Virus record (IMG/VR): IMGVR_UViG_3300030012_000948
Coordinates: 1-39,283 of that record
Length of the DNA stretch: 39,283 bases
Origin: a virus
Lineage: Duplodnaviria; Caudoviricetes
Reading direction: 5' to 3' (one strand)
A model generated the notes under the pieces. The model saw nothing but the letters and a program-made list of their open reading frames with translations, was not told the origin of the DNA and searched no databases. Each line of letters starts with the position of its first letter. The first letter of the stretch is position 1. Positions 732 through 37,676 of this stretch are shown piece by piece. The translations under genes were made by a program, and so were the position numbers.

Positions 732-944
732 TTATTTTAAATCTCCATTACTGTGCCAAAAAGTTTTATCTAATCTTTCTATTATCCATTTAAACCTTGT
801 ATTTTCATTTTCTTCTTCTTGCATATTTGCAAGCATAGGAGCTTCTTGCATTGCTTTTGTATTTGCTTTTATTTTATCCTCTAACATACTAATAAATAGT
901 AATGCTTCTTTTGATGTCATTGATACTTTTTTAAAATCTGTCAT
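732..944 (-). CDS. Accessory small protein in the minus-strand expression slot (70 aa, unknown function)
   Basis: Has its own promoter, the 20-nt conserved leader and a terminator; replaced by an unrelated ORF in copy B. Confidence 0.8.
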   Translation of the reverse strand: MTDFKKVSMTSKEALLFISMLEDKIKANTKAMQEAPMLANMQEEENENTRFKWIIERLDKTFWHSNGDLK

Positions 945-949
945 AATAT

Positions 950-969
950 TTGTTTTGGTTTTAATTAAT
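950..969 (-). repeat. Conserved 20-nt leader ATTAATTAAAACCAAAACAA, copy 1
   Basis: Exact copies at 22238..22257(+), 22412..22431(+) and 32626..32645(-), each at or just before an ATG. Confidence 0.9.
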
Positions 970-977
970 AATTTATG

Positions 978-1007
978 TAAATATAATTATAAATATTTAA
1001 TAAACAA
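978..1007 (-). promoter_or_regulatory. Host sigma-A-type early promoter overlapped by a TATAATTATA palindrome (982..991)
   Basis: Minus strand reads TTG-N19-TATATTTA, one mismatch from the Flavobacterium consensus TTG-N~19-TAnnTTTG. Confidence 0.65.
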
Positions 1008-2635: not shown

Positions 2636-2690
2636 GAATTAATTAATAACAAGGTGGCTGAAATGCTCCCTTAATTTAAAACAATAACAA

Positions 2691-3239: not shown

Positions 3240-3244
3240 AAAAG

Positions 3245-3320
3245 ACGCGATTAATATAATTGTGTGATTCATAATATATAGTTTGATTGAGGGGTGGAAG
3301 TGATTAGCCACCCCTTTTTT
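3245..3320 (+). ncRNA. Putative 3'UTR-derived antisense sRNA 1 (hairpin - seed - terminator)
   Basis: Hairpin 3245..3265. Seed 3268..3284 is the exact reverse complement of 14001..14017 (exonuclease start region). Terminator 3289..3320. Conserved at 34946..35022. Confidence 0.65.
3289..3320 (+). terminator. Intrinsic terminator of the capsid/tail-tube operon
   Basis: GAGGGGTGG-loop-CCACCCCTT followed by a T run. Confidence 0.88.
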
Positions 3321-3330
3321 ATTTAAAAAT

Positions 3331-5973: not shown

Positions 5974-5982
5974 AAATATATT

Positions 5983-13997: not shown

Positions 13998-14012
13998 TTT
14001 AAACTATATATT

Positions 14013-14741
14013 ATGAAAAAGAATCACTTAAGTTATTCAGCATTAAGTCAATTTAAAAAATCTCCTAACCATTTATTAGCATACTGGAACAAAGAATTAA
14101 AAACTACTGATGCTATGCAGTTTGGAAGTTTAATCCACAAAATGTTATTAGAACCAGAATCTTTTTATTATGATTTTGCTGTTTTTGGCGGGGCAAGAAG
14201 AGCTGGTAGACAATGGTTAGAATTTAAAGAAGAAAACGAAGGTAAAACACTAATTAAACAACAAGAATTAGATGATGCAAATAGAATAATTAACAATGCT
14301 ATGTTACATCCAGTACTTACTGAAATGATGCAAAATAAAATAGAATCTGAAGTTAAATTAGAATGGCAACACAAAGATGTTAAATTTAAGGGTTTTGCAG
14401 ACCTTTTAACAACGTTTAATGGTAGAAAATGTGTTGTTGATATTAAAACAACTAATGATGCTGGTAGAAGATTTGAAAGAGATTTATACTATAATGATTA
14501 TAAAATGCAGTTGGCAATGTATCAAGACCAATACGATAAAGATACAGATGCTTATATTGTAGCAATAGAAACTACAACACCATTTAATGTTCAGATATAT
14601 AAATTAGATGATAGTTTATTATTTAAAGGTTGGATGGATTATGATTTTTATACAGATAAGTTTAAAGAATGGGATGGTAGTCCTCAAGGTTACACTAATG
14701 ATATAGTAGAAGTAAAAACAGAAGTGGAGGAAATAGTATGA
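14013..14741 (+). CDS. PD-(D/E)XK exonuclease, RecE/ExoVIII (DUF3799)-like
   Basis: LSYSAL, FGSLIH, KGFAD, VDIKTT and YKMQLAMY motifs. Confidence 0.85.
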   Translation: MKKNHLSYSALSQFKKSPNHLLAYWNKELKTTDAMQFGSLIHKMLLEPESFYYDFAVFGGARRAGRQWLEFKEENEGKTLIKQQELDDANRIINNAMLHPVLTEMMQNKIESEVKLEWQHKDVKFKGFADLLTTFNGRKCVVDIKTTNDAGRRFERDLYYNDYKMQLAMYQDQYDKDTDAYIVAIETTTPFNVQIYKLDDSLLFKGWMDYDFYTDKFKEWDGSPQGYTNDIVEVKTEVEEIV

Positions 14742-16697: not shown

Positions 16698-17081
16698 ATG
16701 AAAGAATTACCATATTTTAAATTTTATCCTAATCAATGGATAACAGGCAGTATATCATTTATGGATTTAGATGTTCAAGGTGCATTTATGAAAGTTTGTT
16801 GCTACTACTGGAGCAAAGAATGTAATGTAACAAGAAAACAAATTAAAACATTAATACCTAAACAATGGAGTACTTTAGTAGATGCTGAGTTATTTAAGAT
16901 AGAAGAAGAAACTATTAGCATTAAATGGTTAGATGAACAATACCAGCAAAGATTAGTAGAACACAAGCGAAATGTTAGCAACGGAAAGAAGGGGGGCTTA
17001 AGCAGGGCTAAAGCATTAAGAAAAGATAAGATAAGAAAAGATAATAAAGACCCTTATTTAACTACAACATTTATAAAATGA
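16698..17081 (+). CDS. Short replication initiator (YdaU/DUF1376-like N-terminal domain)
   Basis: 'LPYFKFYPNQW...GAFM...NGKKGG' pattern, coupled to the helicase, with internal repeats. Confidence 0.7.
   Translation: MKELPYFKFYPNQWITGSISFMDLDVQGAFMKVCCYYWSKECNVTRKQIKTLIPKQWSTLVDAELFKIEEETISIKWLDEQYQQRLVEHKRNVSNGKKGGLSRAKALRKDKIRKDNKDPYLTTTFIK
16996..17044 (+). repeat. Candidate replication origin inside the initiator gene
   Basis: GCTTAAGC-N7-AAGCATT followed by purine-rich AAGAT/AAGAA repeats; near-duplicate at 22111..22154. Confidence 0.5.
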
Positions 17082-19322: not shown

Positions 19323-19669
19323 GTTTAAATGCAATTCAAAAAGGTAAAAGATTTGAGCTAAAAATAGCCAAAGATTTAGCAAAGAAGTTTGAAACTAATA
19401 TTAGAAGAACACCAAACAGCGGTGGTTTAAGTATTAAAGGAGATATAATGACAACAAGCGGAATACTATCTGAGTATAGCTGGGAGTGTAAGAACCAAGA
19501 GAAATTAAATATCTGGAAAGCATTAGAACAAAGTGAAGGAGATGCAAGAGGAACATTAAAAACACCATTAGTTGTATTTACCAAGAACTTTGAAAAAGAT
19601 TATGTTGCATTAAAATATGATGACTTTGTTAATTTACTTCTTGAATTAAATGAGTACAGAAGTAGATAA
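19319..19669 (+). CDS. Holliday junction resolvase-like PD-(D/E)XK nuclease
   Basis: KGKRFE, SGG...GDI, ECKNQE and PLVVF motifs. Confidence 0.75.
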   Translation: MSLNAIQKGKRFELKIAKDLAKKFETNIRRTPNSGGLSIKGDIMTTSGILSEYSWECKNQEKLNIWKALEQSEGDARGTLKTPLVVFTKNFEKDYVALKYDDFVNLLLELNEYRSR

Positions 19670-20159
19670 TATACTACATATTCTAATAAGAGATGAGAAA
19701 ACTTGGCTTAACATGGCTGAGGAAATAAGCAGCAGTAGTAAAGTACCAGCAAAAGATTTACTACATGATTTTTATATTGCTTTACATAGTAAAATTGATA
19801 GTGGTAAAGTAAAAATTAATGACATCCTGTATAACGATTCTTTAAATAAAGCGTTTATATATAAGATGATGTACAATATATTTATTGATAACATAAGAAA
19901 CGACAGGGACATATTAATAGATAAAGAACTTAAAAACATTATAGAAGCAGACAACGAACCATATATTGATATTGAAAAAGTAGTTGATGAAATAGTAGAT
20001 GGCTTTTATTGGTTTGATAGAAAGTTATTTAATTTATATAGAAAGAAATTCCATAGCATAAGAAAACTATCAGCAGCAACTAATATATCACACGTAGTTG
20101 TATGGAGAACTATAAATAATTGTATTAAAGAGATTAAAAAAAAAATTAATGAAAAGTAA
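19650..20159 (+). CDS. Phage ECF-like RNA polymerase sigma factor
   Basis: Region-2-like 'AKDLLHDFYIAL...AFIYKMMYNIFIDNIR' and region-4 HTH 'SIRKLSAATNISHVVVWRTINN'; 169 aa. Confidence 0.75.
   Translation: MSTEVDNILHILIRDEKTWLNMAEEISSSSKVPAKDLLHDFYIALHSKIDSGKVKINDILYNDSLNKAFIYKMMYNIFIDNIRNDRDILIDKELKNIIEADNEPYIDIEKVVDEIVDGFYWFDRKLFNLYRKKFHSIRKLSAATNISHVVVWRTINNCIKEIKKKINEK
19830..19859 (+). promoter_or_regulatory. Putative late promoter embedded in the sigma gene, upstream of the terminase operon
   Basis: TATAAC-gattctttaaataaag(16)-CGTTTATA. Confidence 0.7.
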
Positions 20160-20576: not shown

Positions 20577-20915
20577 ATGTCAAGAGAACAAAACTTAAAA
20601 AGTTGGACTAAAGGCCAATCAGGTAATCCAAAAGGCAAACCAAAAGGCGCTAAAAATAGAAGCACAATTATTAAAGAAATACTTAACTTAATGGTTAAGA
20701 AAGTTGATGCAGATGGTAAAGCAGTTTGGCAAAGTAAAGAGTATTTAATGGTTGAAGCATTAGTTAATAAAGCTATTGATAAAGGGGATGTAAATGCTTT
20801 TAATGCTATATATAATAATTTGTATGGTAACTTAAAAGATACTGTTGATGTAAATACTACAGAAGAAGTAAACCATGATTTCAGAAAAATCATTTCAAGG
20901 ATTAAAGCTCAATAA
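20577..20915 (+). CDS. terS: Terminase small subunit (DUF5681-like)
   Basis: 'WTKGQSGNPKGKPKG' N-terminus, directly upstream of the large subunit. Confidence 0.7.
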   Translation: MSREQNLKSWTKGQSGNPKGKPKGAKNRSTIIKEILNLMVKKVDADGKAVWQSKEYLMVEALVNKAIDKGDVNAFNAIYNNLYGNLKDTVDVNTTEEVNHDFRKIISRIKAQ

Positions 20916-22104
20916 AAAGTATTTAGTATTAGATGAATCATTTGCACGTTATTTTATTGTAACTGGTGGTAGAGGTTCAGGTAAATCATTTGCAGTTAAC
21001 TCAGTACTATTACTATTAACTTATCAAGCAGGGCATACTATATTATTTACACGTTACACGCTAAGAGCTGCCAGCATTAGTATTATACCTGAGTTTATAG
21101 AAAAGTTAGAACTACTTGGGGTTATTGACCAATTCAAAATAACAAAGGATGAAATAATAAATAAAGGCAATGGTAGCAAGATAATATTTAGAGGTATCAA
21201 AACAAGTTCAGGTGACCAAACTGCAAATCTTAAATCATTGACTGGTATAACTACGTGGGTAATGGATGAAGCTGAGGAACTTAATGATGAGGATATATTT
21301 GATAAGATTGATTTATCTGTTAGAAACAAAATACAAGAAAACAGAGTTATATTAATATTAAACCCAACAACCAAAGAACATTTTATTTATAAACGTTGGT
21401 TTGAAGATAGGGGAGTTAGTGCTGGTAGTAATATAACAAAAGAAGATACAACATACATTCACACAACATATTTAGATAATATAGACAACCTTTCAGAAAG
21501 CTATATTAAGCAGATTGAAACAATGAAAGTAAGAAGGCCAAACAGATACAAGCATACAATAGAGGGTGCTTGGTTAGATAAAGCTGAGGGTGTTATATTT
21601 ACTGATTGGAGTATAGGAGAATTTAAACAAGTAGGCAAAGTTGTATTTGGCCAAGATTATGGTTTTAGCAATGACCCATCTACATTAGTTAAAACAAGTA
21701 TAGATAAAGAAAATAAAATAATCTATATACAATTATGTTTCTACCAAACTAAACTAACTACAAGTGAGATATTACAACTTAACAAGAAGTTTGCAGCAGA
21801 TAATTTAATAGTAGGTGATTCAGCAGAACCAAGATTAATAACAGAACTAAGCAGAGATTGTAATGTAGTGCCAGCTATTAAAGGACAAGGCAGTATTACG
21901 TTTGGAATTAGTTTATTACAAGATTATGATTTAGTAATAACTGAAGATAGTACAGAATTAATTAAAGAGTTAAATAACTATTGTTGGTTAGAAAAGAAAT
22001 CACAAACACCAGTTGATAATTTTAATCATGCTATTGATGCGCTGAGGTATGCAGTTAGCTACCAATTACAGAATCCTAATTTAGGAGAATATCACATTTA
22101 TTGA
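20875..22104 (+). CDS. terL: Terminase large subunit (PBSX/SPP1-like)
   Basis: GGRGSGKS, WVMDEA, LNP, GQDYG, DSAEP and NHAIDALRY motifs. Confidence 0.95.
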   Translation: MISEKSFQGLKLNKKYLVLDESFARYFIVTGGRGSGKSFAVNSVLLLLTYQAGHTILFTRYTLRAASISIIPEFIEKLELLGVIDQFKITKDEIINKGNGSKIIFRGIKTSSGDQTANLKSLTGITTWVMDEAEELNDEDIFDKIDLSVRNKIQENRVILILNPTTKEHFIYKRWFEDRGVSAGSNITKEDTTYIHTTYLDNIDNLSESYIKQIETMKVRRPNRYKHTIEGAWLDKAEGVIFTDWSIGEFKQVGKVVFGQDYGFSNDPSTLVKTSIDKENKIIYIQLCFYQTKLTTSEILQLNKKFAADNLIVGDSAEPRLITELSRDCNVVPAIKGQGSITFGISLLQDYDLVITEDSTELIKELNNYCWLEKKSQTPVDNFNHAIDALRYAVSYQLQNPNLGEYHIY

Positions 22105-22156
22105 AGCCCCGCTTAAGCCACCCTTAAGCATTTAGATAAGATAAGAAAAGATAAGA
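22102..22156 (+). repeat. Intergenic second copy of the origin-like element
   Basis: Three 11-bp-phased units (tgaagccccgc/ttaagccaccc/ttaagcattta), plus 21 nt (22134..22154) identical to 17024..17044. Confidence 0.6.
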
Positions 22157-22197: not shown

Positions 22198-22231
22198 TTT
22201 GTAATTTGTATTATAATTATACTTATATTTG
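22198..22231 (+). promoter_or_regulatory. Host sigma-A promoter of the plus-strand accessory slot, with TATAATTATA palindrome (22212..22221)
   Basis: Perfect TATATTTG (-7 box) at 22224..22231, TTTG upstream, and an A-tract UP-like region. Confidence 0.75.
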
Positions 22232-22237
22232 ATTATT

Positions 22238-22257
22238 ATTAATTAAAACCAAAACAA
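22238..22257 (+). repeat. Conserved 20-nt leader, copy 2
   Basis: ATTAATTAAAACCAAAACAA, with the last A being the A of ATG. Confidence 0.9.
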
Positions 22258-22412
22258 TGATTATAGAAACAATGTTAAAATTAGAAAGAGAAAGATACTC
22301 AAGAAAGTTTTTAAATAAACATTTTAATAAAATGACAAAAAAACAAAAAGAACAAGCTATGAAAATACTTGTTGATTTTCAAAAATTTAAAGATAGAGAA
22401 TTAGCATTGTAA
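22257..22412 (+). CDS. Accessory small basic protein (51 aa)
   Basis: MIIETMLKLERERYSRKFLNKHFNKMTKKQKEQAMKILVDFQKFKDRELAL; lies exactly between two leader copies. Confidence 0.75.
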   Translation: MIIETMLKLERERYSRKFLNKHFNKMTKKQKEQAMKILVDFQKFKDRELAL

Positions 22413-22431
22413 TTAATTAAAACCAAAACAA
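22412..22431 (+). repeat. Conserved 20-nt leader, copy 3
   Basis: Exact copy starting in the upstream stop codon. Confidence 0.9.
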
Positions 22432-22432: not shown

Positions 22433-22648
22433 ATGAAATATCAAGTAATAATAAATGACACTAAAGAAACAGTTTTTACATCAGATAATGGAAAGTATAC
22501 AAAAGTGTGGGAAGATGACTATTATAGGTCTTTGTCTTATAAAAGTGAAAAAGGGTTTTTAAATGCATTAAATAAAATGATTAATAAAAAAAGTCAGATT
22601 AGAGCGTGGAATGAAGATGGTACACCAAATAAAGAATTTAAATTATAA
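22433..22648 (+). CDS. Accessory small protein (71 aa)
   Basis: Follows the conserved leader and precedes a terminator. Confidence 0.75.
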   Translation: MKYQVIINDTKETVFTSDNGKYTKVWEDDYYRSLSYKSEKGFLNALNKMINKKSQIRAWNEDGTPNKEFKL

Positions 22649-22676: not shown

Positions 22677-22703
22677 AAGCTACTGTAATAGGTAGCTTTT
22701 TTT
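22677..22703 (+). terminator. Intrinsic terminator of the accessory slot
   Basis: AAGCTAC-tgtaatag-GTAGCTT plus T run. Confidence 0.8.
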
Positions 22704-22719
22704 ATTATATTTGAAATAA

Positions 22720-22796
22720 GCAAATAATAGCCAATGTTAATTTGCGTTTTGGTTTAAAGTAGGTATTCGGCAAAAGAGCGTTACCTACTTTTTTTT
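22720..22796 (+). ncRNA. Putative stand-alone antisense sRNA 2 (~77 nt; hairpin - seed - terminator)
   Basis: TATATTTG box at 22706..22713; stem GCAAAT/ATTTGC; seed GTTTTGGTTT (22746..22755) complementary to AAACCAAAAC of the shared leader; terminator AAAGTAGGTA/TACCTACTTT plus T run. Confidence 0.65.
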
Positions 22797-22805
22797 ATAT
22801 TTGTA

Positions 22806-22835
22806 TATAACGATTCAACAATTAAAACGTTTATA
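22806..22835 (+). promoter_or_regulatory. Putative late promoter of the tail operon (near-leaderless mRNA)
   Basis: TATAAC-gattcaacaattaaaa(16)-CGTTTATA, ending 5 nt before ATG 22841. Confidence 0.78.
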
Positions 22836-25907: not shown

Positions 25908-28102
25908 TGCAAAAGGTTATTCTATACATACAACCACAACTAAGGACAACTACAACTACACAAGATTTTGTTAGAGTTGATTTAATGGAAGAAGATTTAA
26001 TTGAACTAACTCAAGTTATTCAAGATGCAAGAGATATTGAAAAAATATTTACTGATTATTCAAGGACTTTTAATTTACCAGCAAGTAAAACAAATAACAA
26101 GATTTTTAAACATTGGTATAATCCAGATATTGATGGTTTTGATAATCAAATATTTTGTAATGCACGAATAGAATTAAACCACTTGCATTTTAGGTTTGGC
26201 AAAATAAAATTAGAAGAAGCAGTTTTAAAAAATAATGAAATATCAATGTATAAAGTAACATTTTTTGGTGATACTTTAACACTCACAGAATTAATTGGTG
26301 AAGATAGTTTAGATAGTTTATTGTGGTTAAATAATTTTAATCATATTGCCACTAATGCCTATATAAAAGATGCTTTAGAAAATGGCAAAGATTTTACTGT
26401 TGATAGTGTAAGTTATCCAAATGCAATTATATATCCATTAATAGCACACTCACAAAGCTATATTTTTGATGATACTAATAATTTAGATAATGGTTTAAAT
26501 TTAAGTGTTGCTTCTTCACATCACAATAAAAGAGGTGTATTTCCTGAAGATTTAAAACCAGCTATAACTGTTAAAGTTATTTTTAAAGCTATTGAAGAAC
26601 AGTATGGTATAACTTTTAAAACAGGTGAGTTTTTAGATTCTTCTGCTATGACTAACTTATACTTGTGGTTACATAGAGAAAAAGGTAAATTAGTTGCACC
26701 AAATAGTAAAGAACTTAAAACTGCTTTTACTTGCACATCAGGTACAACAGTATGTAATCATTTTAGCTCAACTCAACCACCAATTGGTCCAGAGTCAACA
26801 GGTGGTTCATATATATTTAGTGATAATAATACAGGAGGGCAACCAGAAGGATTTAATTTTGCAGCTCAAATAATACCAACAGATAATACTATTGAATATG
26901 CTATTGATATTATTAATGAAAATGATGGTGTAGTACACGCAACTTTAGAAGGTGTTACAGGTACTCAATCTTTAAGTGTTGGTTTTGGTTTTAATTCAAT
27001 TAATCCAATAGCACAAGGGCAAGGATTTACATTAATAGCTAAAGTAAGAAGTGCAAGTACATTAACTTTTGATTCTGTTTTAACCTGTCAACATTTTGTG
27101 TTTAATTCAAGCACATTAAGTTATGATACTTATTCAGGAACATTTACACAAGATGCTAATTTAACAACTGACCAAACTATTACAATAAGAAACCAAGTAC
27201 CAGATATTAAAGTATTAGATTTTTTAAGAGCATTTTTTAATATGCACAACTTAACTGCATTTTTAAATTTTAATGGTGAAGTGGTTGTTAAAACATTAGA
27301 TAATTTTTATAGTGGTGGAGATACTTTTGACATAACTCCATTTGTAAAAACAGATGAACATACTGTAGGTGCAACAGTTCCATTTAGTGAAGTAGATTAT
27401 GAATATGCAGAACCAAAAAGCATTTTAGCACAACAATTTTTAAACACTAATAATCAAAAGTATGGTGAATTAAATTATGTAGCTGATATTACTAAAAGTA
27501 AAAAGTATGAAATTAAAATACCTTTTGAGCACATGTTGTTTGAAAGATTACAAGATAAAACAAGTAGTGCTTTAACTACAGTTCAGGTTGGTAGTTTTTT
27601 AAATGAAGAACTTGAACCAAGTATTGGACAACCACTTTTATTTTATGGTATCTATCAACAGAATCAGGATAATATTAATTTTATTTATAATACAAGACCA
27701 GCAGTTTATGGAGCTCTAGCAGATAATCCAGCTAATAATTCTGATGTTTTTAACTTAAATGATTATTGGATTCCAAGTGTGTGTAATGAATTAGGTACAT
27801 CATCAACACCACCTACATATAATTTAAATTTTGGTAGTGAAATAAATACTTATACACTAACTGATTATGGTGGTAATAATAATAGTTTATTTCAAACTTA
27901 TTACACTAATTACATCACAAGAGTATTTAACAAAAGAACAAGAATATTCAAGTTTTCTGCAATACTACCACTTAAAGTATTATTAAATCTAACATTAGAT
28001 GATTTAATTGTAGTTGGTACAAGAGCATACACAATAAATAAAATGTCAACTAAATTACAATCAGGTGAAACCAATTTTGAACTACTAAATGAACCATCAT
28101 GA
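25907..28102 (+). CDS. Large tail tip/hub protein
   Basis: 731 aa, 'YSRTFNLPASKTNNKIF' N-terminus typical of Bacteroidota phage tail proteins. Confidence 0.6.
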   Translation: MQKVILYIQPQLRTTTTTQDFVRVDLMEEDLIELTQVIQDARDIEKIFTDYSRTFNLPASKTNNKIFKHWYNPDIDGFDNQIFCNARIELNHLHFRFGKIKLEEAVLKNNEISMYKVTFFGDTLTLTELIGEDSLDSLLWLNNFNHIATNAYIKDALENGKDFTVDSVSYPNAIIYPLIAHSQSYIFDDTNNLDNGLNLSVASSHHNKRGVFPEDLKPAITVKVIFKAIEEQYGITFKTGEFLDSSAMTNLYLWLHREKGKLVAPNSKELKTAFTCTSGTTVCNHFSSTQPPIGPESTGGSYIFSDNNTGGQPEGFNFAAQIIPTDNTIEYAIDIINENDGVVHATLEGVTGTQSLSVGFGFNSINPIAQGQGFTLIAKVRSASTLTFDSVLTCQHFVFNSSTLSYDTYSGTFTQDANLTTDQTITIRNQVPDIKVLDFLRAFFNMHNLTAFLNFNGEVVVKTLDNFYSGGDTFDITPFVKTDEHTVGATVPFSEVDYEYAEPKSILAQQFLNTNNQKYGELNYVADITKSKKYEIKIPFEHMLFERLQDKTSSALTTVQVGSFLNEELEPSIGQPLLFYGIYQQNQDNINFIYNTRPAVYGALADNPANNSDVFNLNDYWIPSVCNELGTSSTPPTYNLNFGSEINTYTLTDYGGNNNSLFQTYYTNYITRVFNKRTRIFKFSAILPLKVLLNLTLDDLIVVGTRAYTINKMSTKLQSGETNFELLNEPS

Positions 28103-28236: not shown

Positions 28237-30608
28237 AAACAATTAATTATACAGTTGACATAAAAACCAAAACTTCTTCTGTTAAACAAGGAGAGAAAGA
28301 TGTTAAAGATTTAGGTAAAACAACTAAAAAAGTTTCTAAAGATGCAACTAAAAACTTAGATGCAATGGGTGGAGCATTAAATGCTTTACCAGCTCCAATA
28401 CAAAGAATTGTAACAGGTTTTCAAACTTTAAAAGTTGCATTATTATCTTCTGGTATCGGAGCATTTATTGTAGCTGCTGGTGCATTAGCTGGATTATTTA
28501 CTGCTGCAACTAAAAAAGGTGCTGAATTTTCAAAAGCATTATCTGGATTAGAAGCAGTTCTTGGAGCAAGTGATGATGAAATGAATCAACTATCTAAATC
28601 AGCAAAAGAACTTGGTTCATCAACTCAATTCACAGCAAAAGAAGTTGTTAGTTTACAAACAGAATTTGCTAAACTTGGATTTTCAACAAAAGAAATACTT
28701 AAATCTACAAAAGCAACATTAGATTTAGCGGCTTCTTTAGATGTTGGTCTTGGTGAAGCAGCATCGATAGCTGGTTCAACTTTAAGAGCGTTTGGATTAG
28801 AAGCACAAGAAACTCAAAGAGTTGTTGATGTAATGGCTTCATCCACAAGTAAATCTGCTTTAGATTATGATTCCTTAAGAGAATCTTTAAAACTTGTAGC
28901 TCCTACTTCAAGAGCGATGAATGTGAGTATTGAAGAAACAACTGCTCTTTTAGCTACTCTTGCTGATAATGGTTTAAAAGGTTCTATTGCTGGAACTGGA
29001 CTGAGCAAAACTTTTATTGAATTAAATAAAAAAGGTATTCCACTTAATGAAGCACTTGAAAGAGTTAAAAATAGTTCTAATTCTTTAAATAAAGCAATTG
29101 ATTTAGTTGGAGTTGTTGGTTCTAAATCACTTTTAACACTTGCTAATAATGCTCCTAAAATAGACACTTTAACAACTGCTTTTGAAAATTCACAAGGTGC
29201 TGCTCAAAGATTAGCAGAAACAAGATTAGATAATTTAGCAGGAGATACCACTAAATTAAGTTCAGCATGGGAAGGATTTTTATTATCTGTTGAAGATGGT
29301 GAAGGTATATTTAGTAAAATAGCAAGAGGATTTGTCCAAGCATTAACAGGAATTGTAAATACTTTAACTTTTGTTAGTAAAGCAACAGGAGCGTTTTTTG
29401 CAGAAATAAGAGAAACTGCTGGCATTTCTTTAGCAGTTCTTAAAACAGGAATAAAAAACACTTTAAGAGGTATACAAAATTCTTTTTTAAGTTTTAAAGA
29501 AACTATTGCTGATATTCCTTTTATTGGAAAAGCAATTGATAAAGAAAAACTTGCAAAAGATAGAGAAGCATTAAACCAAGCATTAGCAAAAGCAAATGAG
29601 GATGCTAAATACTGGGCTGATATAAGTAAGAAACGAGCAGAAGAAGGCAATCTTTTTGAAAGAACTATAAATAGGTTAAAACAAAAAGAACAACAAAGAA
29701 GTAATGAAGAATTAGAAGAAAGCAATAAGAATAAATCAGATGCTAATGTAAAAGGGTTAGAAGAAGAAGAAAAGAAAACAACGGATTTAATAAAATTAAA
29801 ACAAGAAGAACTTAAAGCAATATTAAATGTAGATGCAGCAACAAGAAAAGAGTTAGCAATTAGAAATGAAAAAGTTAAAGCAATACAAGCTGAAATTAAA
29901 GAACTACAAAATTTAAGAACAGCTAAATTTGATATTGAAAAAATCGACACAGAATCTTTACCTACTTTAAAAGCAAGAGAGATTGAAAAAATAGAAATTA
30001 GAACTGGCGCAGAAGATTTAATTTCAAGAAATATCAAAAAAATTAAAGACCAAACAACACGTGATGATGTTATTAGAGAAAATGAAGATTTTGAAAGAAA
30101 AAAAGCTCTTGCGAATGCACAAGTTGATATTGCTTTAGGTGCTTTAAGTTCTATTGGTCAAATTGCTGATGCTTTTGCTAAAGGAGATGAAAAAAGGGCA
30201 AAGAAAGCATTTAAAATAAATAAAGCTATTGGTATTGCACAGGCAACAATTAACACAGCGAGAGGTATTGTAAATGAACTTTCACACCCTGTCAAAAGTT
30301 TAACTTTTACAAACTATGCTGCTGCTGCTGCAATGGCATTGGCTGGAGCTGCTCAAATAGCAACAATATCTGCAACAAGATTTGATTCTGGTGGGGGTGC
30401 TAAACCAACAACAACAGACGATACTGGTGGTGGTAGTTTAAATGCTGCAACACAACCACCATCTTTCAACGTAGTAGGGCAAAGTCAAGCAAATCAAGTG
30501 GCAATGGCTCTTACAAATCAACCACCAGCACAAGCATTTGTAGTAGCTGGAGATGTTACAACAGCACAACAACTACAAAACAATACAATACAACAAGCAA
30601 CTTTTTAA
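28233..30608 (+). CDS. Tail tape measure protein (TP901-family core)
   Basis: 'LGSSTQFTAKEV...AKLGF...GLKGSIAGT...LDNLAGD...LSSAWEG' core; Ala-rich and helical; 791 aa. Confidence 0.9.
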   Translation: MKTINYTVDIKTKTSSVKQGEKDVKDLGKTTKKVSKDATKNLDAMGGALNALPAPIQRIVTGFQTLKVALLSSGIGAFIVAAGALAGLFTAATKKGAEFSKALSGLEAVLGASDDEMNQLSKSAKELGSSTQFTAKEVVSLQTEFAKLGFSTKEILKSTKATLDLAASLDVGLGEAASIAGSTLRAFGLEAQETQRVVDVMASSTSKSALDYDSLRESLKLVAPTSRAMNVSIEETTALLATLADNGLKGSIAGTGLSKTFIELNKKGIPLNEALERVKNSSNSLNKAIDLVGVVGSKSLLTLANNAPKIDTLTTAFENSQGAAQRLAETRLDNLAGDTTKLSSAWEGFLLSVEDGEGIFSKIARGFVQALTGIVNTLTFVSKATGAFFAEIRETAGISLAVLKTGIKNTLRGIQNSFLSFKETIADIPFIGKAIDKEKLAKDREALNQALAKANEDAKYWADISKKRAEEGNLFERTINRLKQKEQQRSNEELEESNKNKSDANVKGLEEEEKKTTDLIKLKQEELKAILNVDAATRKELAIRNEKVKAIQAEIKELQNLRTAKFDIEKIDTESLPTLKAREIEKIEIRTGAEDLISRNIKKIKDQTTRDDVIRENEDFERKKALANAQVDIALGALSSIGQIADAFAKGDEKRAKKAFKINKAIGIAQATINTARGIVNELSHPVKSLTFTNYAAAAAMALAGAAQIATISATRFDSGGGAKPTTTDDTGGGSLNAATQPPSFNVVGQSQANQVAMALTNQPPAQAFVVAGDVTTAQQLQNNTIQQATF

Positions 30609-30619: not shown

Positions 30620-32227
30620 ATGGATATAATAGAATTAATATTAGATGAAGAAAATGAAGAGATGGTTGGAATAGATGCGGTTAGTATCGTAGAGAATCCA
30701 GCTATTGAATCAGATTTTATTGCATTAGCAAGTGATGAAATACAACTTGCAAAAATAGATGAAGAGAAAAAACTTCTTCTTGGTGCAGCACTTATACCAA
30801 ACAAGCCAATATTTAGAAAGCGTAATGATACTATGTTTTATGTTTACTTTTCAAAAGATACAGTAAGAAGAGCAAGTGAATTGTTTTTTCAAAACAGTAA
30901 TCAAAACAACGCAACCTTAGAACACCAAATGAGTGTTAATGGTTTAACTGTTGTAGAATCTTGGATAGTAGAAGATACTAAAATGGATAAATCTGCTAAG
31001 TATGGTTTAGAAATGCCTGAGGGTACTTGGATGATTTCTATGAAAGTGGAGAATAATGAAGTTTGGACTGATTATGTTAAAACTGGTAAAGTAAAGGGTT
31101 TCTCAATTGAAGGATTTTTTTCTGACCGAGCAAAAATTAAAAAACCTGATACAAAAGCAGAGATGGCAGCTATTGAAGAAGAGGAAGCTGAATATATGCT
31201 TAGTAATATTAAGGCACTAATTAAGAAAGATGGTAGAACTAAATCTGGCAAAAAGATAACATTAGAAACTTATAATGATTATCCACAAGCAGTAAGTAAT
31301 AATGCTAAAAGAGGTATTGAACTAAATGAAAAAGTTAATAATAAATGTGCAACACAAGTTGGTAAAATAAGAGCGCAACAATTAGCACAAAAAGAAAACA
31401 TTAGTTTACAAACTTTAAAAAGGATGTACAGTTATTTAAGTAGAGCGCAAGAATATTATGATGAAGGAGATACAAAAGCGTGTGGTACAATTAGTTATTT
31501 ACTATGGGGTGGTAAAGCTGGCCTTAGATGGAGTGAAAGCAAGTTAAAAGAACTTGGTGAAATTAATTTAGCTTCTATGGTGGTTGATGATAACTTTGCA
31601 ATAATAGATGATAGATTAGCTTATAAAACTCAAGAGAAAGCTGAGGAGATGGCTAAAAATATAGGTTGTGAAGGTTTTCACGTTCACGAATTTGAGGGTA
31701 AAGAGTGGTATATGCCTTGTGAAAAACATAGTTTGCAAGAATACAAATGCCCAGAAGGATTTGTAAAAAAAGATGGTAGATGCGTTAAAAAAAAAAGTAG
31801 CTATGCAGAAGTAGGAGAAAGAGGTGGAGTTAAGAAATCACCTAAAGCACCAGCATCTGGAACACCAAATAAAAATCCTAAAGGAAAAGGTACTGCTAAA
31901 GGAGATGCCTCAACAAGTAGAGGAGCTAAAGTAAGTAAAGCAGATGAAGCAACACTACAAAAGAAATCTGATGAATTTAACGAAAGATATAAAGAAAAGT
32001 TAGGATATGGAGTTACTATTGGACAATTAAAAACAGTTTTTCAACGTGGATTAGGTGCATTTAATGTATCACATTCACCAAGAGTAACCTCAGCTAAACA
32101 ATGGGCATTAGCAAGAGTAAATGCTTATTTATATCTTGTAAAAAATGGTAGGCCACAAAATCCTAAATATGTAGGAGATTTTGATTTGCTACCAAGTAAA
32201 CATCCTAAATCACCAAAAAATAAATAA
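30620..32227 (+). CDS. Prohead serine protease (XkdF-like) fused to several accessory domains
   Basis: 'AVSIVENPAIE...TLEH...VESW...GTW...GKVKGFSIEG' protease domain followed by ~350 aa of extra modules. Confidence 0.78.
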   Translation: MDIIELILDEENEEMVGIDAVSIVENPAIESDFIALASDEIQLAKIDEEKKLLLGAALIPNKPIFRKRNDTMFYVYFSKDTVRRASELFFQNSNQNNATLEHQMSVNGLTVVESWIVEDTKMDKSAKYGLEMPEGTWMISMKVENNEVWTDYVKTGKVKGFSIEGFFSDRAKIKKPDTKAEMAAIEEEEAEYMLSNIKALIKKDGRTKSGKKITLETYNDYPQAVSNNAKRGIELNEKVNNKCATQVGKIRAQQLAQKENISLQTLKRMYSYLSRAQEYYDEGDTKACGTISYLLWGGKAGLRWSESKLKELGEINLASMVVDDNFAIIDDRLAYKTQEKAEEMAKNIGCEGFHVHEFEGKEWYMPCEKHSLQEYKCPEGFVKKDGRCVKKKSSYAEVGERGGVKKSPKAPASGTPNKNPKGKGTAKGDASTSRGAKVSKADEATLQKKSDEFNERYKEKLGYGVTIGQLKTVFQRGLGAFNVSHSPRVTSAKQWALARVNAYLYLVKNGRPQNPKYVGDFDLLPSKHPKSPKNK

Positions 32228-32228
32228 T

Positions 32229-32381
32229 ATGAAAAGTAAAAAATTTGTAACACCAAGTAATACATCACCTAAAAACACTAATAGAGGTTGTTTGTGTCCT
32301 GATGGTAAAAGATATAGTAGAAAATGTTGTGATGGCTCATTACAAGCTCAAGGTATAGGTTCTATTACTGGCAGTAATTAA
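32229..32381 (+). CDS. Small basic Cys-rich protein, copy B
   Basis: Homologue of 532..684. Confidence 0.8.
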   Translation: MKSKKFVTPSNTSPKNTNRGCLCPDGKRYSRKCCDGSLQAQGIGSITGSN

Positions 32382-32411
32382 AAAAAGCCACTCTTTTGAA
32401 GTGGCTCTTTT
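32380..32411. terminator. Bidirectional terminator, copy B
   Basis: Same stem-loop as 683..712. Confidence 0.8.
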
Positions 32412-32430
32412 ATTTTAGTTTTTTAGGTAT

Positions 32431-32625
32431 TTATTTAAAATCATAAATACTTTGGAGATAATCAATTACACTATAATACATAGTATCTAAAAAAGTAGTT
32501 TTTTCGTTGTGTTTCCAATTACCATCTTTTTGTATAACTGTAAAATCTATATAAGTTCTATTACATCCTATAGATGTATTTTTGTTAATTTTGATGTAGT
32601 TTCCGTTTTTTAATTCAAGTATCAT
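32431..32625 (-). CDS. Accessory small protein in the minus-strand slot, copy B (64 aa, unrelated to 732..944)
   Basis: Same promoter, leader and terminator; different ORF. Confidence 0.8.
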   Translation of the reverse strand: MILELKNGNYIKINKNTSIGCNRTYIDFTVIQKDGNWKHNEKTTFLDTMYYSVIDYLQSIYDFK

Positions 32626-32645
32626 TTGTTTTGGTTTTAATTAAT
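32626..32645 (-). repeat. Conserved 20-nt leader, copy 4
   Basis: Exact copy abutting the ATG. Confidence 0.9.
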
Positions 32646-32713
32646 AATTTATGTAAATATAATTATAATTATTTAATAAACAAGCATTTTATAAAAAAAA
32701 AATTAAAAAAAAA

Positions 32714-32743
32714 TATAACAGTAAAGGTTTTCAAACGTTTATA
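32714..32743 (+). promoter_or_regulatory. Putative late promoter, copy B
   Basis: TATAAC-N16-CGTTTATA; differs from 1037..1066 only in the spacer. Confidence 0.8.
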
Positions 32744-32759
32744 GGTATATACTCAAATT

Positions 32760-33380
32760 ATGAAAGCAAACGAAATACTAAACAAAATAAAAAATATTGT
32801 TGGTGAAAAAGTTGAACTTTCTGAAGAAAAAATAGAAATGGCTGAAATCACATTAGAAAATGGTACTGTACTTGTTGCAGAATCTTTTGAAGCTGGAAAA
32901 TCTGTATTTATTAAAACTGAAGATGAAGAAATTGCTCTTCCTGTTGGTGAATATAAATTAGAAGAAGGCAAAGTTTTAGTTGTAACTGAAGAAGGTTTAA
33001 TTGACAGTATTAAAGAAGCTGCTGAAGAAGCAGTTGAAGAAGAAGAATTATCTGAAGAATCTAATGAAGAAGTAGAAACTGAATTAGAGGAAGAAGAAAA
33101 AGAAGAAATGGAATATGTTACCAAAGAAGAATTCAAATCTGCTGTTGAAGAAATAAAAGCAATGATTGAAAAAATGGGTAACAAAGATAAAGAAGAAATG
33201 AAGGAAGAAGTAATAGAAGAAGTTAAAGAAGAAAAAGAAGAACTTTCTGCTGTTGCTCCTGAACCTGTAAAACATAATCCTGAAGCTGAAGTTGATAATA
33301 AAGTGAATTTTCATATTGCAAGCAATAGAACACAAACAACTAAAGACAGGGTTTTTGATAAAATTTTTAACAATAATTAA
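32760..33380 (+). CDS. Scaffolding protein, copy B
   Basis: Homologue of 1083..1688. Confidence 0.7.
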   Translation: MKANEILNKIKNIVGEKVELSEEKIEMAEITLENGTVLVAESFEAGKSVFIKTEDEEIALPVGEYKLEEGKVLVVTEEGLIDSIKEAAEEAVEEEELSEESNEEVETELEEEEKEEMEYVTKEEFKSAVEEIKAMIEKMGNKDKEEMKEEVIEEVKEEKEELSAVAPEPVKHNPEAEVDNKVNFHIASNRTQTTKDRVFDKIFNNN

Positions 33381-33391
33381 TATAAAATAAA

Positions 33392-34336
33392 ATGGCGAAT
33401 AGTTTAAATACACCAATTACAAGTACTTATGCTGGTGAGTTTGCTGGGAAATATATCTCTGCTGCTCTTTTAAGTGCTAACACAATTGATAAAGGCGGAA
33501 TAGAAGTAATGCCTAATATCAAGTACAAGTCTACAATGAAGAAAGTAGCAACTGCATCATCTATTATAGGTAATGCTGCTTGTGATTTTTCTGGAACTGC
33601 AGACCAAGTTACATTAACTGAAAGATTATTACAACCAGAGGAGTTTCAAGTAAACCTTGAGTTCTGTAAGCAAGATTTCCAATCGGATTGGGAAGCTGCT
33701 CAAATGGGATATTCTGCATTTGATAAAATGCCACCTAAATTTTCAGATTTCATTATTGGCCACGTAGCTGGTTTAGTAGCTGAAAAAACTGAGCAAAACA
33801 TTTGGGAAGGTGTTAATGCAAACGCTGGAGAATTTGATGGTTTAGTAACTTTAGCTTTAGCTGATGCTGATGTAGTAGATGTAGCATCTCACGCTGCTGT
33901 AACTGCTGCTAACGTAATTGACAAATTAGGTTCTATTGTTGATGCAATACCTTCTGCTCTTTACAATAAAGAAGATTTACACATTTACGTATCACAAAAC
34001 ATTGCAAGAGCTTATGTAAGAGCTTTAGGTGGTTTTGCTACTTCAATTGGTGCTGCTGGTACTGATTCAAAAGGAACACAATGGTACAACGCTGGTGGAC
34101 AACTATCTTTTGATGGTGTGAAAATCTTTGTTGCTAATGGTTTAGCTGATGATACTGCAATGGCTGCACAAAAATCTAACTTATACTTTGGAACTGGTTT
34201 ATTATCAGATATGAACGAAGTTAAAGTATTAGATATGGCTGACCTTGATGGTTCACAAAATGTCAGAGTAATAATGAGATTTACTTCTGGTGTACAATAC
34301 GGAATAGGTTCTGATATAGTTTTATACCACGCCTAA
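33392..34336 (+). CDS. Major capsid protein, copy B
   Basis: Homologue of 1700..2635. Confidence 0.8.
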   Translation: MANSLNTPITSTYAGEFAGKYISAALLSANTIDKGGIEVMPNIKYKSTMKKVATASSIIGNAACDFSGTADQVTLTERLLQPEEFQVNLEFCKQDFQSDWEAAQMGYSAFDKMPPKFSDFIIGHVAGLVAEKTEQNIWEGVNANAGEFDGLVTLALADADVVDVASHAAVTAANVIDKLGSIVDAIPSALYNKEDLHIYVSQNIARAYVRALGGFATSIGAAGTDSKGTQWYNAGGQLSFDGVKIFVANGLADDTAMAAQKSNLYFGTGLLSDMNEVKVLDMADLDGSQNVRVIMRFTSGVQYGIGSDIVLYHA

Positions 34337-34390
34337 GAATTAATTAATAACAAGGGGGTGTGATTCCCCCTTTATTTAAATTTTAATAAT

Positions 34391-34939
34391 ATGGCTTGCG
34401 ATTTAACAGCTGGTAGAAAAGTACCTTGTAAAGATGTAATTGGTGGTATTGTTAGAGCTTGGTTCATTGATTTTGGTGAATTAGGAACTGTAACAAAAAC
34501 CAATGATGAAATTACAGATATGACAGGTACAATAACTGCCTTACAATATGATTTAAAAGGAACAAATAGTTTGGAAACTGCTATTACATCCTCAAGAGAG
34601 AATGGCACAACATTCTTTGAAGAAACATTAACTTTAACACTACCTAAATTATCTAAAGAAGATAATAAGGAACTTAAGCTGATGGCTTTTGGACGTCCCC
34701 ACGTTTGTGTAGAAGATAGAAACGGAAACTTCTTTTTATGTGGCTTAGAACACGGAATGGAAGTTACTGGTGGAAGTATAGCTACGGGAACAGCTTTTGG
34801 GGATTTAAGCGGTTACTCACTAACATTAACTGGTCAAGAATTAGAACCAGCTAATTTTATTGCTGGTGGTACTTCTGCTGACCCTCTTGCGGGAATGAGT
34901 TCAGCGACTGTAACAGTTACTGTAGGTACAAATAGTTAA
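34391..34939 (+). CDS. Probable major tail tube protein, copy B
   Basis: Homologue of 2691..3239. Confidence 0.6.
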   Translation: MACDLTAGRKVPCKDVIGGIVRAWFIDFGELGTVTKTNDEITDMTGTITALQYDLKGTNSLETAITSSRENGTTFFEETLTLTLPKLSKEDNKELKLMAFGRPHVCVEDRNGNFFLCGLEHGMEVTGGSIATGTAFGDLSGYSLTLTGQELEPANFIAGGTSADPLAGMSSATVTVTVGTNS

Positions 34940-34945
34940 AAAAAT

Positions 34946-35022
34946 ACGCAGTTAAATATAATTGTGTGATTCATAATATATAGTTTGATTGAGGGGTGGA
35001 AGTGATTAGCCACCCCTTTTTT
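34946..35022 (+). ncRNA. Putative antisense sRNA 1, copy B
   Basis: Seed (34970..34986) and terminator identical to copy A; hairpin changes preserve pairing. Confidence 0.65.
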
Positions 35023-35033
35023 ATTAAAAAAAT

Positions 35034-35387
35034 ATGCAAATATTAACTACAAGTGGCACACGAATTATTAACTTTATACCAAGAGAAACAATAACTGGTA
35101 GTAAAACTTATAAATTAGTGATAAAATCAGAAGCTCAAAATAAAGTTATAGCAACAGATAATGATGCAACATTTTCTGAATTAGATTACTATTACCAATA
35201 CTCAACTACTCAAGCGTTAGTTGAAAATCAATACTATACTATTACAATCACTAATACAACAGATAACGCAATAATTTTTAAAGATAAAATGTATTGTTCA
35301 GACCAAACACTTTCAGATTATGAGATTTCAAATGGTGTTTATATAGAACAAAGCACAGGAGACAATCAATTTATATATTATGGATAA
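35034..35387 (+). CDS. Hypothetical structural protein, copy B
   Basis: Homologue of 3331..3684. Confidence 0.6.
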   Translation: MQILTTSGTRIINFIPRETITGSKTYKLVIKSEAQNKVIATDNDATFSELDYYYQYSTTQALVENQYYTITITNTTDNAIIFKDKMYCSDQTLSDYEISNGVYIEQSTGDNQFIYYG

Positions 35388-37167
35388 TTTACATTTAATA
35401 CAATTAGGCCAATACGAAAGGCCAACAATCACAGAGGAACGTAATAAAGATTGGGTATCAATAGGCGATAATAATGATTATTACCAAAGTTTGATTGATG
35501 CTTATATGGATAGCACAACAAACAATGCTGTAATTAATGGTATTGTAAATCAAATTTACGGTAAAGGATTAGATGCTACTGATTCTGCACAAAAGCCAGA
35601 CCAGTATGCACAGATGAGGAGTTTGGTAAAACCTCACGATTTAAGAAATGTTTGCCAAGATTTAAAACTATTAGGAGAAGCTGCTTTTCAAATAACTTAC
35701 AATGGTAATAAAATATCAGCAATAACACACTTTCCAAGAGAAACGTTAAGAGCTGAAAAGATGAATGATAAAGGCGAAATAAAAAACTATTTTTATTCTG
35801 CTGATTGGAGTAAAGTTAAACACAATACTAAACTAAAAAAGTTTCCTGTTTTTGGTAGTGGCGCACAAAATGAAATATATATTGTAAAAAGATATGTAAC
35901 TGGATTTTACTATTATTCGCCAGCAGATTATAATACTGCTTATGCAACACTTGAAAATGAGATAGCGTGTTACTTAATTAACGATACTCAGAATGGTTTT
36001 AGTGGTACAAAGGTGGTAAACTTTAATAATGGTGTACCTGATAGAGAAAAGCAATTAGCCATTAAGAATGATGTAATGCAAAAACTTACTGGTAGCTATG
36101 GCGAGAAAGTAATTGTTGCATTTAACAATAATGCAGAAAGTAAAACAACTGTTGAGGATATACCATTAAACGATGCTCCAGCACATTATTCTTATTTAAG
36201 TGAAGAATGTAGTAGAAAGATTATGTTAACTCACAGGGTGACATCACCCTTGCTCATTGGCTTAAGAGATGGTAATAATGGTTTAGGTAATAATGCAGAT
36301 GAAATACAAAACGCCTCAAGGCTTTTTAATAACGTAGTTATACAACCGTACCAAAATCTTTTAATTGATAGCTTAGATACAATATTAGCAGTAAATGATA
36401 TTAGTTTAAATCTTTACTTTAAAACTATTGAACCATTAGAATTTATGGATTTAGAGAATGTTGAAGGTGAAGAAAACATTGAAGAGCAAACTGGAATAAA
36501 GGAAGAAGAAGAAAGCACAGAGCTTGAAATAATGGCTTCTAAGAGCATTTCTAATAAAGATAGTGATGAACTACTAAAAGATGCTTTAGATTCGCTTAAA
36601 GGCGTTAAAATGGATTCTGAAGAGTTTGAAATAGTTGATATTAGAGATTTAGATGATGAAAATGAAAGTATTGAAGATTGGGCTAAATCAATGATACAAT
36701 TAAGTGATGTTATAGATAGTAAAGAAGATGGTTTTTCTACTTTAGATAAATCAATGTATAAAGTAAGATACAAATATGCAAAAGGCAGCAGTAGAGGTGG
36801 AGAAAGCAGAGAGTTTTGCAAAGAGATGATGAACAGAACAAGTGCTGGTATTGTATATAGATTAGAAGATATTGATAAAGCAAGCAGGGATATGAACTTT
36901 AAAGCTGCTAAATTACCAATGCACAATGGCCAAAAGTATGATTTGTTTAAATTTAAAGGTGGTGTTTATTGTAGACACAAATGGCAACAGATTTTATACA
37001 AAATAAAAAAAGGAAAAGAAGTTGGTAGTGAGGATTTAGATGATTACAAAAAAACTAAATCTATTCCAAAGAGTTATGAACCAAAGCCAAGAGGTAGAAA
37101 ACAAGCAGCAAAAGCTCCAGTAAATATGCCTAATAATGGACATCACCCAAATTATAAAGGAAAATGA
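35380..37167 (+). CDS. Portal protein with an alternative MuF-like C-terminal domain, copy B
   Basis: N-terminal ~355 aa near-identical to copy A; C-terminus SREFC...KGGVYCRHKW strongly diverged. Confidence 0.75.
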   Translation: MDNLHLIQLGQYERPTITEERNKDWVSIGDNNDYYQSLIDAYMDSTTNNAVINGIVNQIYGKGLDATDSAQKPDQYAQMRSLVKPHDLRNVCQDLKLLGEAAFQITYNGNKISAITHFPRETLRAEKMNDKGEIKNYFYSADWSKVKHNTKLKKFPVFGSGAQNEIYIVKRYVTGFYYYSPADYNTAYATLENEIACYLINDTQNGFSGTKVVNFNNGVPDREKQLAIKNDVMQKLTGSYGEKVIVAFNNNAESKTTVEDIPLNDAPAHYSYLSEECSRKIMLTHRVTSPLLIGLRDGNNGLGNNADEIQNASRLFNNVVIQPYQNLLIDSLDTILAVNDISLNLYFKTIEPLEFMDLENVEGEENIEEQTGIKEEEESTELEIMASKSISNKDSDELLKDALDSLKGVKMDSEEFEIVDIRDLDDENESIEDWAKSMIQLSDVIDSKEDGFSTLDKSMYKVRYKYAKGSSRGGESREFCKEMMNRTSAGIVYRLEDIDKASRDMNFKAAKLPMHNGQKYDLFKFKGGVYCRHKWQQILYKIKKGKEVGSEDLDDYKKTKSIPKSYEPKPRGRKQAAKAPVNMPNNGHHPNYKGK

Positions 37168-37667
37168 GTAAAGCACTATTTGTAACAAGACACGATATAT
37201 CAGTATTTACTGCTGCTAATGGTAATATAGATAATGATAAATTATTACCATTTATAAACCAAGCACAGGATATTCACATACAAAATTACTTAGGTACTGA
37301 TTTATATGTTAAAATACAAAATGAAATAACTGCTGGTACTTTAGCTGACCCTTATTTAGCTTTGCTGAATAATTATATAAAAAGTATGCTCTTACATTGG
37401 AGTATGGTTGAATACTTACCTTATGCTGGTGTTAATATTTCAAATGGTGGTATATATACTAAGAATCCTGAAAATAGCACAGCATTAAGCAAAGAACACG
37501 TAGATAGCTTAATAGAAAGAAGTAGAACTACAGCACAGTTTTACACAAATAGATTTATAGATTTTATGCAAAATAACGCAGCTGGATTAATACCTGAGTA
37601 TTATAGTAATTCTCAAGAGGATATGTATCCAGATGATGTTGCAGATTTTGGAGGTTGGGTACTTTAA
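37164..37667 (+). CDS. Probable head-tail adaptor, copy B
   Basis: Homologue of 5470..5973. Confidence 0.5.
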   Translation: MSKALFVTRHDISVFTAANGNIDNDKLLPFINQAQDIHIQNYLGTDLYVKIQNEITAGTLADPYLALLNNYIKSMLLHWSMVEYLPYAGVNISNGGIYTKNPENSTALSKEHVDSLIERSRTTAQFYTNRFIDFMQNNAAGLIPEYYSNSQEDMYPDDVADFGGWVL

Positions 37668-37676
37668 AAATATATT

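Follow-up and report, generated by a model that had tools for sequence, protein, structure and literature searches.

Genomic context of the locus

The window, that is, the whole 39,283-nucleotide stretch of DNA analysed here, carries a tailed phage whose terminase (20875-22104), portal, tape measure, helicase and sigma-like genes were recognised with PHROGs. Its closest cultured relatives are the Nonlabens (Persicivirga) phages P12024L and P12024S (Inhavirus), with 30% identity in gpD, 32% identity in the capsid protein and a like gene order, and from these nearest cultured relatives we infer a marine Flavobacteriia host. Positions 3-4833 and 31706-36542 are 89% identical. The overlap runs over 1-7484 and 31706-39187 at 86-89% identity, with two sister genotypes joined in the record, which is likely an assembly chimera made up of one genome of about 31.7 kb and a sister-genotype overlap.

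The spacer between the terminase gene and gpD holds a small cassette operon followed by a putative sRNA gene. A 21-nt purine-rich repeat after the terminase gene (22134-22154) is an exact copy of 17024-17044 inside gene 16698-17081, is kept in many relatives and is possibly an origin-like or initiator-binding site. In some relatives (L003, L005, L010, L013 and others) interchangeable ORFs of 244-313 aa, methyltransferase-like by eye, lie right after the terminase gene in this same spacer. A TATAAC...AACGTTTATA motif is found ahead of the scaffold gene and gpD, at 1037-1066, 22806-22835 and 32714-32743, and is a candidate late promoter for the sigma-like gene 19650-20159.

Relatives were collected via the downstream gene gpD and via the terminator motif. 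Spacer counts refer to 214 complete terminase-gpD spacers, with four rows removed as duplicates or presumed duplicates and near-identical contigs kept separate; the gpD tree was obtained by a quick IQ-TREE search with 115 rows.

Cassettes with a common leader

The cassette operon begins with a promoter box TATATTTG (22224..22231, + strand), followed by leader 1, AAACCAAAAC (22246..22255, +), and a cargo ORF encoding a soluble protein of 51 aa (22257..22412, +). Leader 2 (22420..22429, +) precedes a second cargo ORF (22433..22648, +) for a soluble protein of 71 aa, and the sequence ahead of it (22401-22414) is a copy of the promoter-leader module found in relatives. The ORF list and profile scan gave no family for the first cargo and no significant family for the second; both leaders are predicted targets of the sRNA by sequence match and pairing energy. 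By sequence, a second cassette site lies on the minus strand at 732..985, with box TATATTTA at 978-985, a leader at 952-961 and a 70-aa cargo at 732-944, and its counterpart in the sister genotype at 32431..32661 (-) has its box at 32654-32661, its leader at 32628-32637 and a different 64-aa cargo. Given the sister-genotype overlap, 952-961 and 32628-32637 hold two alleles of a single leader site that differ in cargo, and one genome therefore has three leaders.

Swappable small ORFs behind one promoter-leader module are thus found in two places, the terminase-gpD spacer and the second site before the scaffold gene. In this lineage the CC leader heads 19 unrelated cargo families, and the 70-aa cargo of 732-944 turns up at the terminase site in L043. 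That interchangeable small genes sit on a common leader, as a previous sequence-only reading had it, is borne out by these cassettes of relatives and by the one cargo seen at both sites. Representatives of the 19 families match no named family and no toxin family in Pfam or PHROGs; cargo matches to Tad5 (E 0.054) and DnaD_N (E 0.0045) were below the cut-off and were rejected.

Anatomy of the putative sRNA gene

A terminator at 22679..22703 (+), recognised by fold and sequence, parts the cassette operon from the sRNA gene. The latter opens with the box TATATTTG (22706..22713, +) of the Bacteroidetes primary-sigma -7 type, the predicted sRNA promoter; TAnnTTTG is given as the Bacteroidetes promoter consensus in PMC7366714. 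The predicted sRNA of about 77 nt (22718..22795, +) has its 5' end placed from the position of the box and its 3' end from the T run. It consists of a 5' hairpin (22720..22745) with the stem GCAAAT (22720-22725) and ATTTGC (22740-22745), an open linker GTTTTGGTTT (22746..22755) whose core GTTTTGG (22746-22752) is the predicted seed, and an intrinsic terminator (22756..22796) in which 22756-22765 pairs with 22782-22791 and the T run covers 22789-22796, so that three of the ten stem pairs draw on the T run. An inner terminator hairpin, GC-AAAAGA-GC (22770-22779, +), is conserved and is kept on sister RNAs with other 5' parts.

The minimum free energy fold of 22718-22800 (-19.6 kcal/mol, z -2.5, equalled by 3 of 200 shuffles) has two hairpins and leaves only the 10-nt linker open, with unpaired probabilities of 0.65-0.98. 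The box, stem, linker and T-run terminator are all read directly where the earlier reading had placed them, and its count of exactly ten open nucleotides agrees with the fold. Its view that the unit has no credible ORF also stands, the sole overlapping frame being one of 22 codons with a TTG start on the minus strand. A minus-strand gene led by the linker was considered and rejected, as there is no ATG downstream and no box upstream. Scanning the window against Rfam gave no match at gathering score. Of six metatranscriptomes, X1 and X2 contain contigs that cross the unit into the next gene and X3 contains a single 157-nt contig from 22762; all are assembled contigs, from which strand and ends are unreadable.

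Conservation of the unit

Marine uncultured phages related to Nonlabens phage P12024 carry the same unit of box, 5' hairpin, GTTTTGG and terminator. Among 55 distinct units the core GTTTTGG is kept in 43, and the remaining 12 comprise three one-base variants, one GGTTTGG and eight other linkers on the same 3' module. Their boxes are TATATTTG in 39, TATATTTA in nine, TACATTTG in four and TATCTTTA in one, with none found in two. Ahead of GTTTTGG there are 37 distinct 5' parts, with a 5-bp hairpin at one extreme and a 100-nt arm at the other. The three T after the core differ among relatives; it is therefore not the full ten-base pairing that is conserved. Predictions have the core mostly open in 27 of 41 units and mostly paired in 14, mainly those of the long-arm type. 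An invariant 7-mer flanked by an exchangeable hairpin and a terminator has the look of a seed.

When 26 short variants were aligned, 98.9% of 453 cells were paired, a value reached by none of 500 shuffles, with slid controls at 34-58%. Two of the 18 pairs have changed on both sides, one per stem: C-G to U-A in the 5' stem of three variants (97% of cells paired) and G-C to A-U in the terminator stem of eight (99.6% paired). Because this count took its structure from the fold of the window itself and drew on related sequences, the compensatory changes are support for the structure, not proof.

A covariance model (R1) found one copy in the window and, among 46 relatives, one copy in each of 11, at scores from 46 bits upwards. 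It had no match in P12024L or P12024S, where the CCAAAAC leader is also absent, and the RNA family had no match in cultured phages. A search of bacterial genomes with the seed-plus-terminator pattern gave 84 stretches in unrelated taxa, which were taken as chance and served only as a way to Flavobacteriaceae genomes.

Sister RNAs with the same promoter and 3' module and with other 5' parts and linkers are present in eight loci (L004, L020, L063, L084, L116, L125, L150 and L555). Their linkers are not U/G-rich, and they have no convincing partner in the start regions of 47 phage records, where the best exact matches are of 11-14 nt and never in the own genome. A further structured element, found in the same spacer of other phages (L008 9745-9864 and others) and not in the window, consists of a GAGG...CCTC or GAGC...GCTC stem followed by a terminator. 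It sometimes has its own promoter box (L059, L148), occurs as 18 distinct sequences in 76 loci including duplicates, has a fixed inner motif resembling that of the sRNA terminator and gave no Rfam match.

The unit lies just upstream of the conserved late-promoter-like motif at 22806-22835, and 13 of 81 close loci are without it by pattern, some of them genuinely. This would agree with there being no functional RNA at all, the locus holding a stray promoter plus an additional terminator, which together insulate the downstream late gene. The fixed seed, the compensatory changes in the 5' stem and the kept box, which insulation does not need, make such an explanation highly unlikely. By its sequence, the locus is a real, conserved sRNA-like gene. 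The earlier claim of a stand-alone structured RNA gene with a host-type promoter is upheld by the conservation of both box and paired structure, with promoter and terminator as predictions.

Complementarity between seed and leaders

AAACCAAAAC occurs exactly seven times in the window: in the four leaders (952-961 on the minus strand, 22246 and 22420 on the plus strand, 32628-32637 on the minus strand), on the RNA's own minus strand and at two sites inside genes. The last two were rejected as targets, the tape-measure site 28264-28273 being perfect in one of nine distinct versions, as by chance, and the site 26982-26991 lying on the non-coding strand. The four leaders take ranks 1-4 among the 53 start regions of the window, at -11.7 kcal/mol against -8.0 kcal/mol for the next, and among 420 10-mers of the spacer with at least three G/C the linker alone matches three start regions in trans. 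The sequence-only reading had the linker pair 10/10 with four leaders and extend with small bulges. All four leaders do match, but they represent three loci per genome and only seven of the bases are fixed; the bulged extension is seen in the bare duplex for two of the four leaders (-12.3 to -13.5 kcal/mol) but is lost when the whole RNA is co-folded. The 10-bp duplex is kept in that co-fold, with a net energy of -12.2 kcal/mol.

Cassettes are present in 89 of the 214 complete spacers: 23 have the seed and a CC leader, nine the seed and another leader, two a CC leader and no seed, and 55 neither. One of the two spacers with a CC leader and no seed has a one-base seed variant and the other is a 39% fragment. 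The 64 seed-bearing spacers include 32 without a cassette and the nine with a non-CC leader. Complete seed-bearing relatives (G001, G004 and G006) have the CC leader in 3/3 cases. In 51 distinct seed-bearing spacers a CC cassette accompanies 18 of 40 linkers that pair over 9-10 nt and none of 11 that pair over 7-8 nt. The RNA of G011 carries a different linker, and the leader at its second site has lost the Cs behind an unchanged promoter. One cargo family follows a CC leader in phages that carry the seed and a leader without CC in distant phages. Among 588 start regions, taken at the first ATG of long ORFs in an 800-kb sample from two Flavobacteriaceae that are not the real host, CCAAAAC was found once.

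In the gpD tree the seed and the CC leader are confined to one clade, so that the counts are not independent and come near to one event, and Fisher values overstate the co-occurrence. In no locus examined, including those from a scan for non-standard linkers (six matches), had seed and leader changed in a compensatory manner. Relatives that keep the linker with a different leader, named beforehand as evidence against the pairing, are found in part: nine of the 32 seed-bearing cassette spacers have a non-CC leader, and a second lineage, described below, has retained the seed, with none of its 14 partial records showing a CC leader.

The adjacency of small ORFs without family to an antisense RNA, together with the CC cassettes in all three complete seed-bearing relatives, recalls type I toxin-antitoxin loci, where a small ORF lies beside a small RNA complementary to its leader (PMC6563280, PMC3919570). 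In contrast to such loci, the cargos here are hydrophilic and unrelated, the pairing covers 7-10 nt, and RNA and cargo each occur alone. A hydrophobic helix is usually called at a Kyte-Doolittle mean of about 1.6. The top 19-residue mean among the first members of the 19 cargo families is 1.43, so that none of these representatives has such a helix, and, as noted above, none matches a toxin family. In the complete genomes G071 and G073, which are more distant, a 57-aa gene follows the exact leader and such an RNA is absent. Neither an integrase nor an antirepressor was found among the 21+12 proteins scanned, and with no integrase among the ORFs examined there is no evident carrier state to protect. 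It is therefore very improbable that the RNA is a multi-target type I antitoxin neutralising toxic cargos, and this part of the sequence-only reading is not supported, given the 19 family representatives without a hydrophobic helix and the leader without RNA in G071 and G073.

Seed and leader in other phages and in hosts

The second lineage, whose terminase is 27-29% identical, carries the same RNA with the seed. No CC leader was found in its 14 records, which are 13-62% complete; the only occurrences of CCAAAAC-ATG in these partial records are on the minus strand of the RNA itself and at one site within a gene. L134 is a recombinant of a second-lineage terminase with the gpD of the present lineage, with the crossover at the RNA; the lineages therefore recombine and likely share hosts. 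The exact leader also precedes a gene of about 435 aa, without PHROG family, of a much larger phage in 8 of 29 loci (L505, L506, L509-L511, L516, L525 and L528), and it heads genes of 253, 57 and 52 aa in other phages. In Flavobacteriaceae the 10-nt leader starts real genes at 5 of 23 sites checked (L562, L571, L577, L491 and L560), whose products include a TonB-dependent receptor and other envelope-type proteins.

These findings could be explained if the RNA acts in trans and its seed is fixed by a target outside the genome, either host envelope mRNAs in the manner of FopS or early genes of co-infecting phages, with the cassettes as secondary targets. Of the 64 spacers with the seed, 41 have no CC cassette; the second lineage, too, retains the seed; other phages, the much larger one included, use the exact leader; the lineages recombine; and one of the five Flavobacteriaceae genes is a TonB-dependent receptor. 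We nevertheless regard an outside target as rather unlikely, since the five host genes are not orthologues, the 10-mer with ATG occurs 48 times in five host-type genomes against 48 for the reversed control, the linker reaches 9-10 pairing bases only where the phage's own CC cassettes occur, and the second-lineage records are incomplete. A related idea, which we judge quite unlikely, is that the RNA could be an inter-phage weapon aimed at a strong start signal of several unrelated marine Bacteroidota phages, with a resident phage silencing early or structural genes of co-infecting rivals. This would explain why the seed is kept in a lineage without such a leader and, if true, would make the 3' module, with its exchangeable 5' parts, a natural guide scaffold open to re-programming.

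U/G-rich tracts before terminators

U/G-rich tracts precede 26 of 69 terminators of distant phages and 4 of 98 host terminators. TTTGGTT is present in 8 of the 69 distant-phage tracts, and AACCAAA in 1 of 935 start regions there. The tracts pair with their own leaders at -9.96 kcal/mol and with those of others at -9.87 kcal/mol (1909 of 5000 permutations). As such tracts are common and own leaders are not preferred, a match of 7-10 nt to an A/C-rich leader is weak evidence taken alone. For the 3' tracts of 55 distant spacers the match length to the own operon was 7.4 against 7.0 (86 of 5000 permutations), a difference that comes from L230 and L245; general own-operon pairing of distant 3' tracts was rejected, the energy being no better for the own operon. 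The first leader of the own genome is matched over 15 nt by the tract of L230 and over 13 nt by that of L245. Just upstream of gpD in L210-L288 the operon ends with TTTTCAT, a U/G-rich tract and a terminator, which is anti-start-codon-like and similar to the beginning of the GibS consensus.

The linker might accordingly be no more than a U/G-rich single-stranded tract that binds a host RRM protein of the RbpB type or stabilises the RNA, which would act as a decoy or scaffold, with the leader match a result of base composition. The frequency of the tracts, the pairing energy without own-genome preference and the fixed inner terminator motif common to RNAs with unrelated 5' parts are in keeping with this, and RbpB is described as binding single-stranded sRNA regions (PMC11697453). 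However, generic tracts vary and GTTTTGG, which is fixed in the sRNA, is found in none of 200 pre-terminator tracts directly behind genes; the sister RNAs have linkers on the same 3' module that are not U/G-rich; and the CC leader tracks the seed. We therefore think it unlikely that the linker is such a protein-binding tract.

Comparison with known regulatory RNAs

The CI RNA of phage P4 is a phage antisense RNA of the c4 kind. The c4 antisense RNA of phages P1 and P7, described in PMC12197685, is directed at a single fixed target (ant) and acts in lysogenic immunity. Like the present RNA it is short, structured and of phage origin, and it pairs in trans with phage mRNA at the ribosome-binding region, as the present RNA is predicted to do. 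It differs in that the predicted target leader here precedes at least 19 unrelated swappable genes, that the seed is the linker between two stems and that antirepressor, integrase and lysogeny genes are absent from the 21+12 proteins scanned. The c4 and CI models of Rfam gave no gathering-score match in the window and were not among seven weak matches in L008.

The Bacteroides sRNAs GibS and FopS share with it the phylum-type promoter and a single-stranded U-rich seed with a terminator, and repress by pairing near start codons without Shine-Dalgarno sequence or Hfq (PMC7366714, PMC11697453); one phage with a FopS sequence is mentioned in PMC11697453. The RNA described here differs from them in its seed, its 5' hairpin and its predicted targets, which are phage genes. 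The best score of the GibS model was 27.6 bits against a gathering score of 115, on the neighbouring element of L008, and no GibS or FopS seed or model match was found. The Start Associated Sequences of cluster K mycobacteriophages are likewise a short repeat directly upstream of many unrelated gene starts, though of unrelated sequence and in another host phylum; the passages of PMC3203893 that deal with them propose a site for RNA or protein and identify no partner RNA.

The features of an sRNA class directed against start regions are present, namely a predicted promoter and terminator, no credible ORF, a conserved structure and a conserved seed, open in most units, that is complementary to start regions elsewhere. 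The mechanism class is already known from c4, GibS and FopS; the RNA family itself is not found in Rfam or in cultured phages. No published description of it was found in a literature search of article text. A list of candidate structured RNAs from viral genomes is said to date from 2022. Table S1 of PMC12197685 names 38 phage sRNAs without function, PMC8040213 and PMC2864571 hold lists of candidate structured RNAs, and such lists could include the present sRNA.

Proposed mechanism and significance

Given the anatomy, conservation, complementarity and seed-leader co-occurrence observed, the reading we favour, at about even odds, is that the RNA acts in trans by blocking CCAAAAC-type start regions and so times early accessory genes; its transcription, pairing, repression and timing we infer as follows. 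As both have the same promoter box, host polymerase would make the sRNA at the same time as the cassette mRNAs. The open GUUUUGG seed would then pair with CCAAAAC just ahead of the cassette start codons, in a duplex covering about -2 to -17 of the start region, and damp translation. The stable RNA would accumulate and cut the early burst of accessory protein short, giving a pulse. Such damping would be independent of the cargo behind the leader, and any incoming mRNA with a CCAAAAC leader would be acted on as well. In this reading the RNA is a brake or timer, not an antitoxin on which the cassettes depend.

In Bacteroidetes the stretch from about -2 to -17 is the A-rich zone that sets translation in place of a Shine-Dalgarno sequence, and pairing of GibS and FopS close to the start codon leads to repression (PMC7366714, PMC11697453). 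GibS pairs over 30-50 nt (PMC7366714), and a duplex of 7-10 bp would seem short for a phylum without Hfq.

Another possible anti-start element was noticed in the same phage. A 17-nt stretch in the 3' UTR of gene 2691-3239 (3268-3284, +; copy at 34970-34986), preceding that gene's own terminator, is exactly complementary to 14001-14017 (+), the start of the PD-(D/E)XK nuclease gene 14013. In 18 genomes with both genes the match is of 17 nt in nine and of at most 11 nt in eight, and in G020 both sides have changed with a compensated match of 15 nt. It is a candidate for late shut-off of an early gene and, as a second anti-start element, seems to point the same way as the sRNA.

If the proposed timing role is right, abundant marine phages of the Flavobacteriia type would need only a single leader and a single sRNA to govern their pool of swappable accessory genes, and a gene recombining into a cassette would therefore be controlled at once. 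Riboregulation of the Bacteroidetes kind, without Hfq or Shine-Dalgarno sequence, would then extend to phages, and the 77-nt RNA would provide a tool for gene repression in Flavobacteriia that is easy to test.
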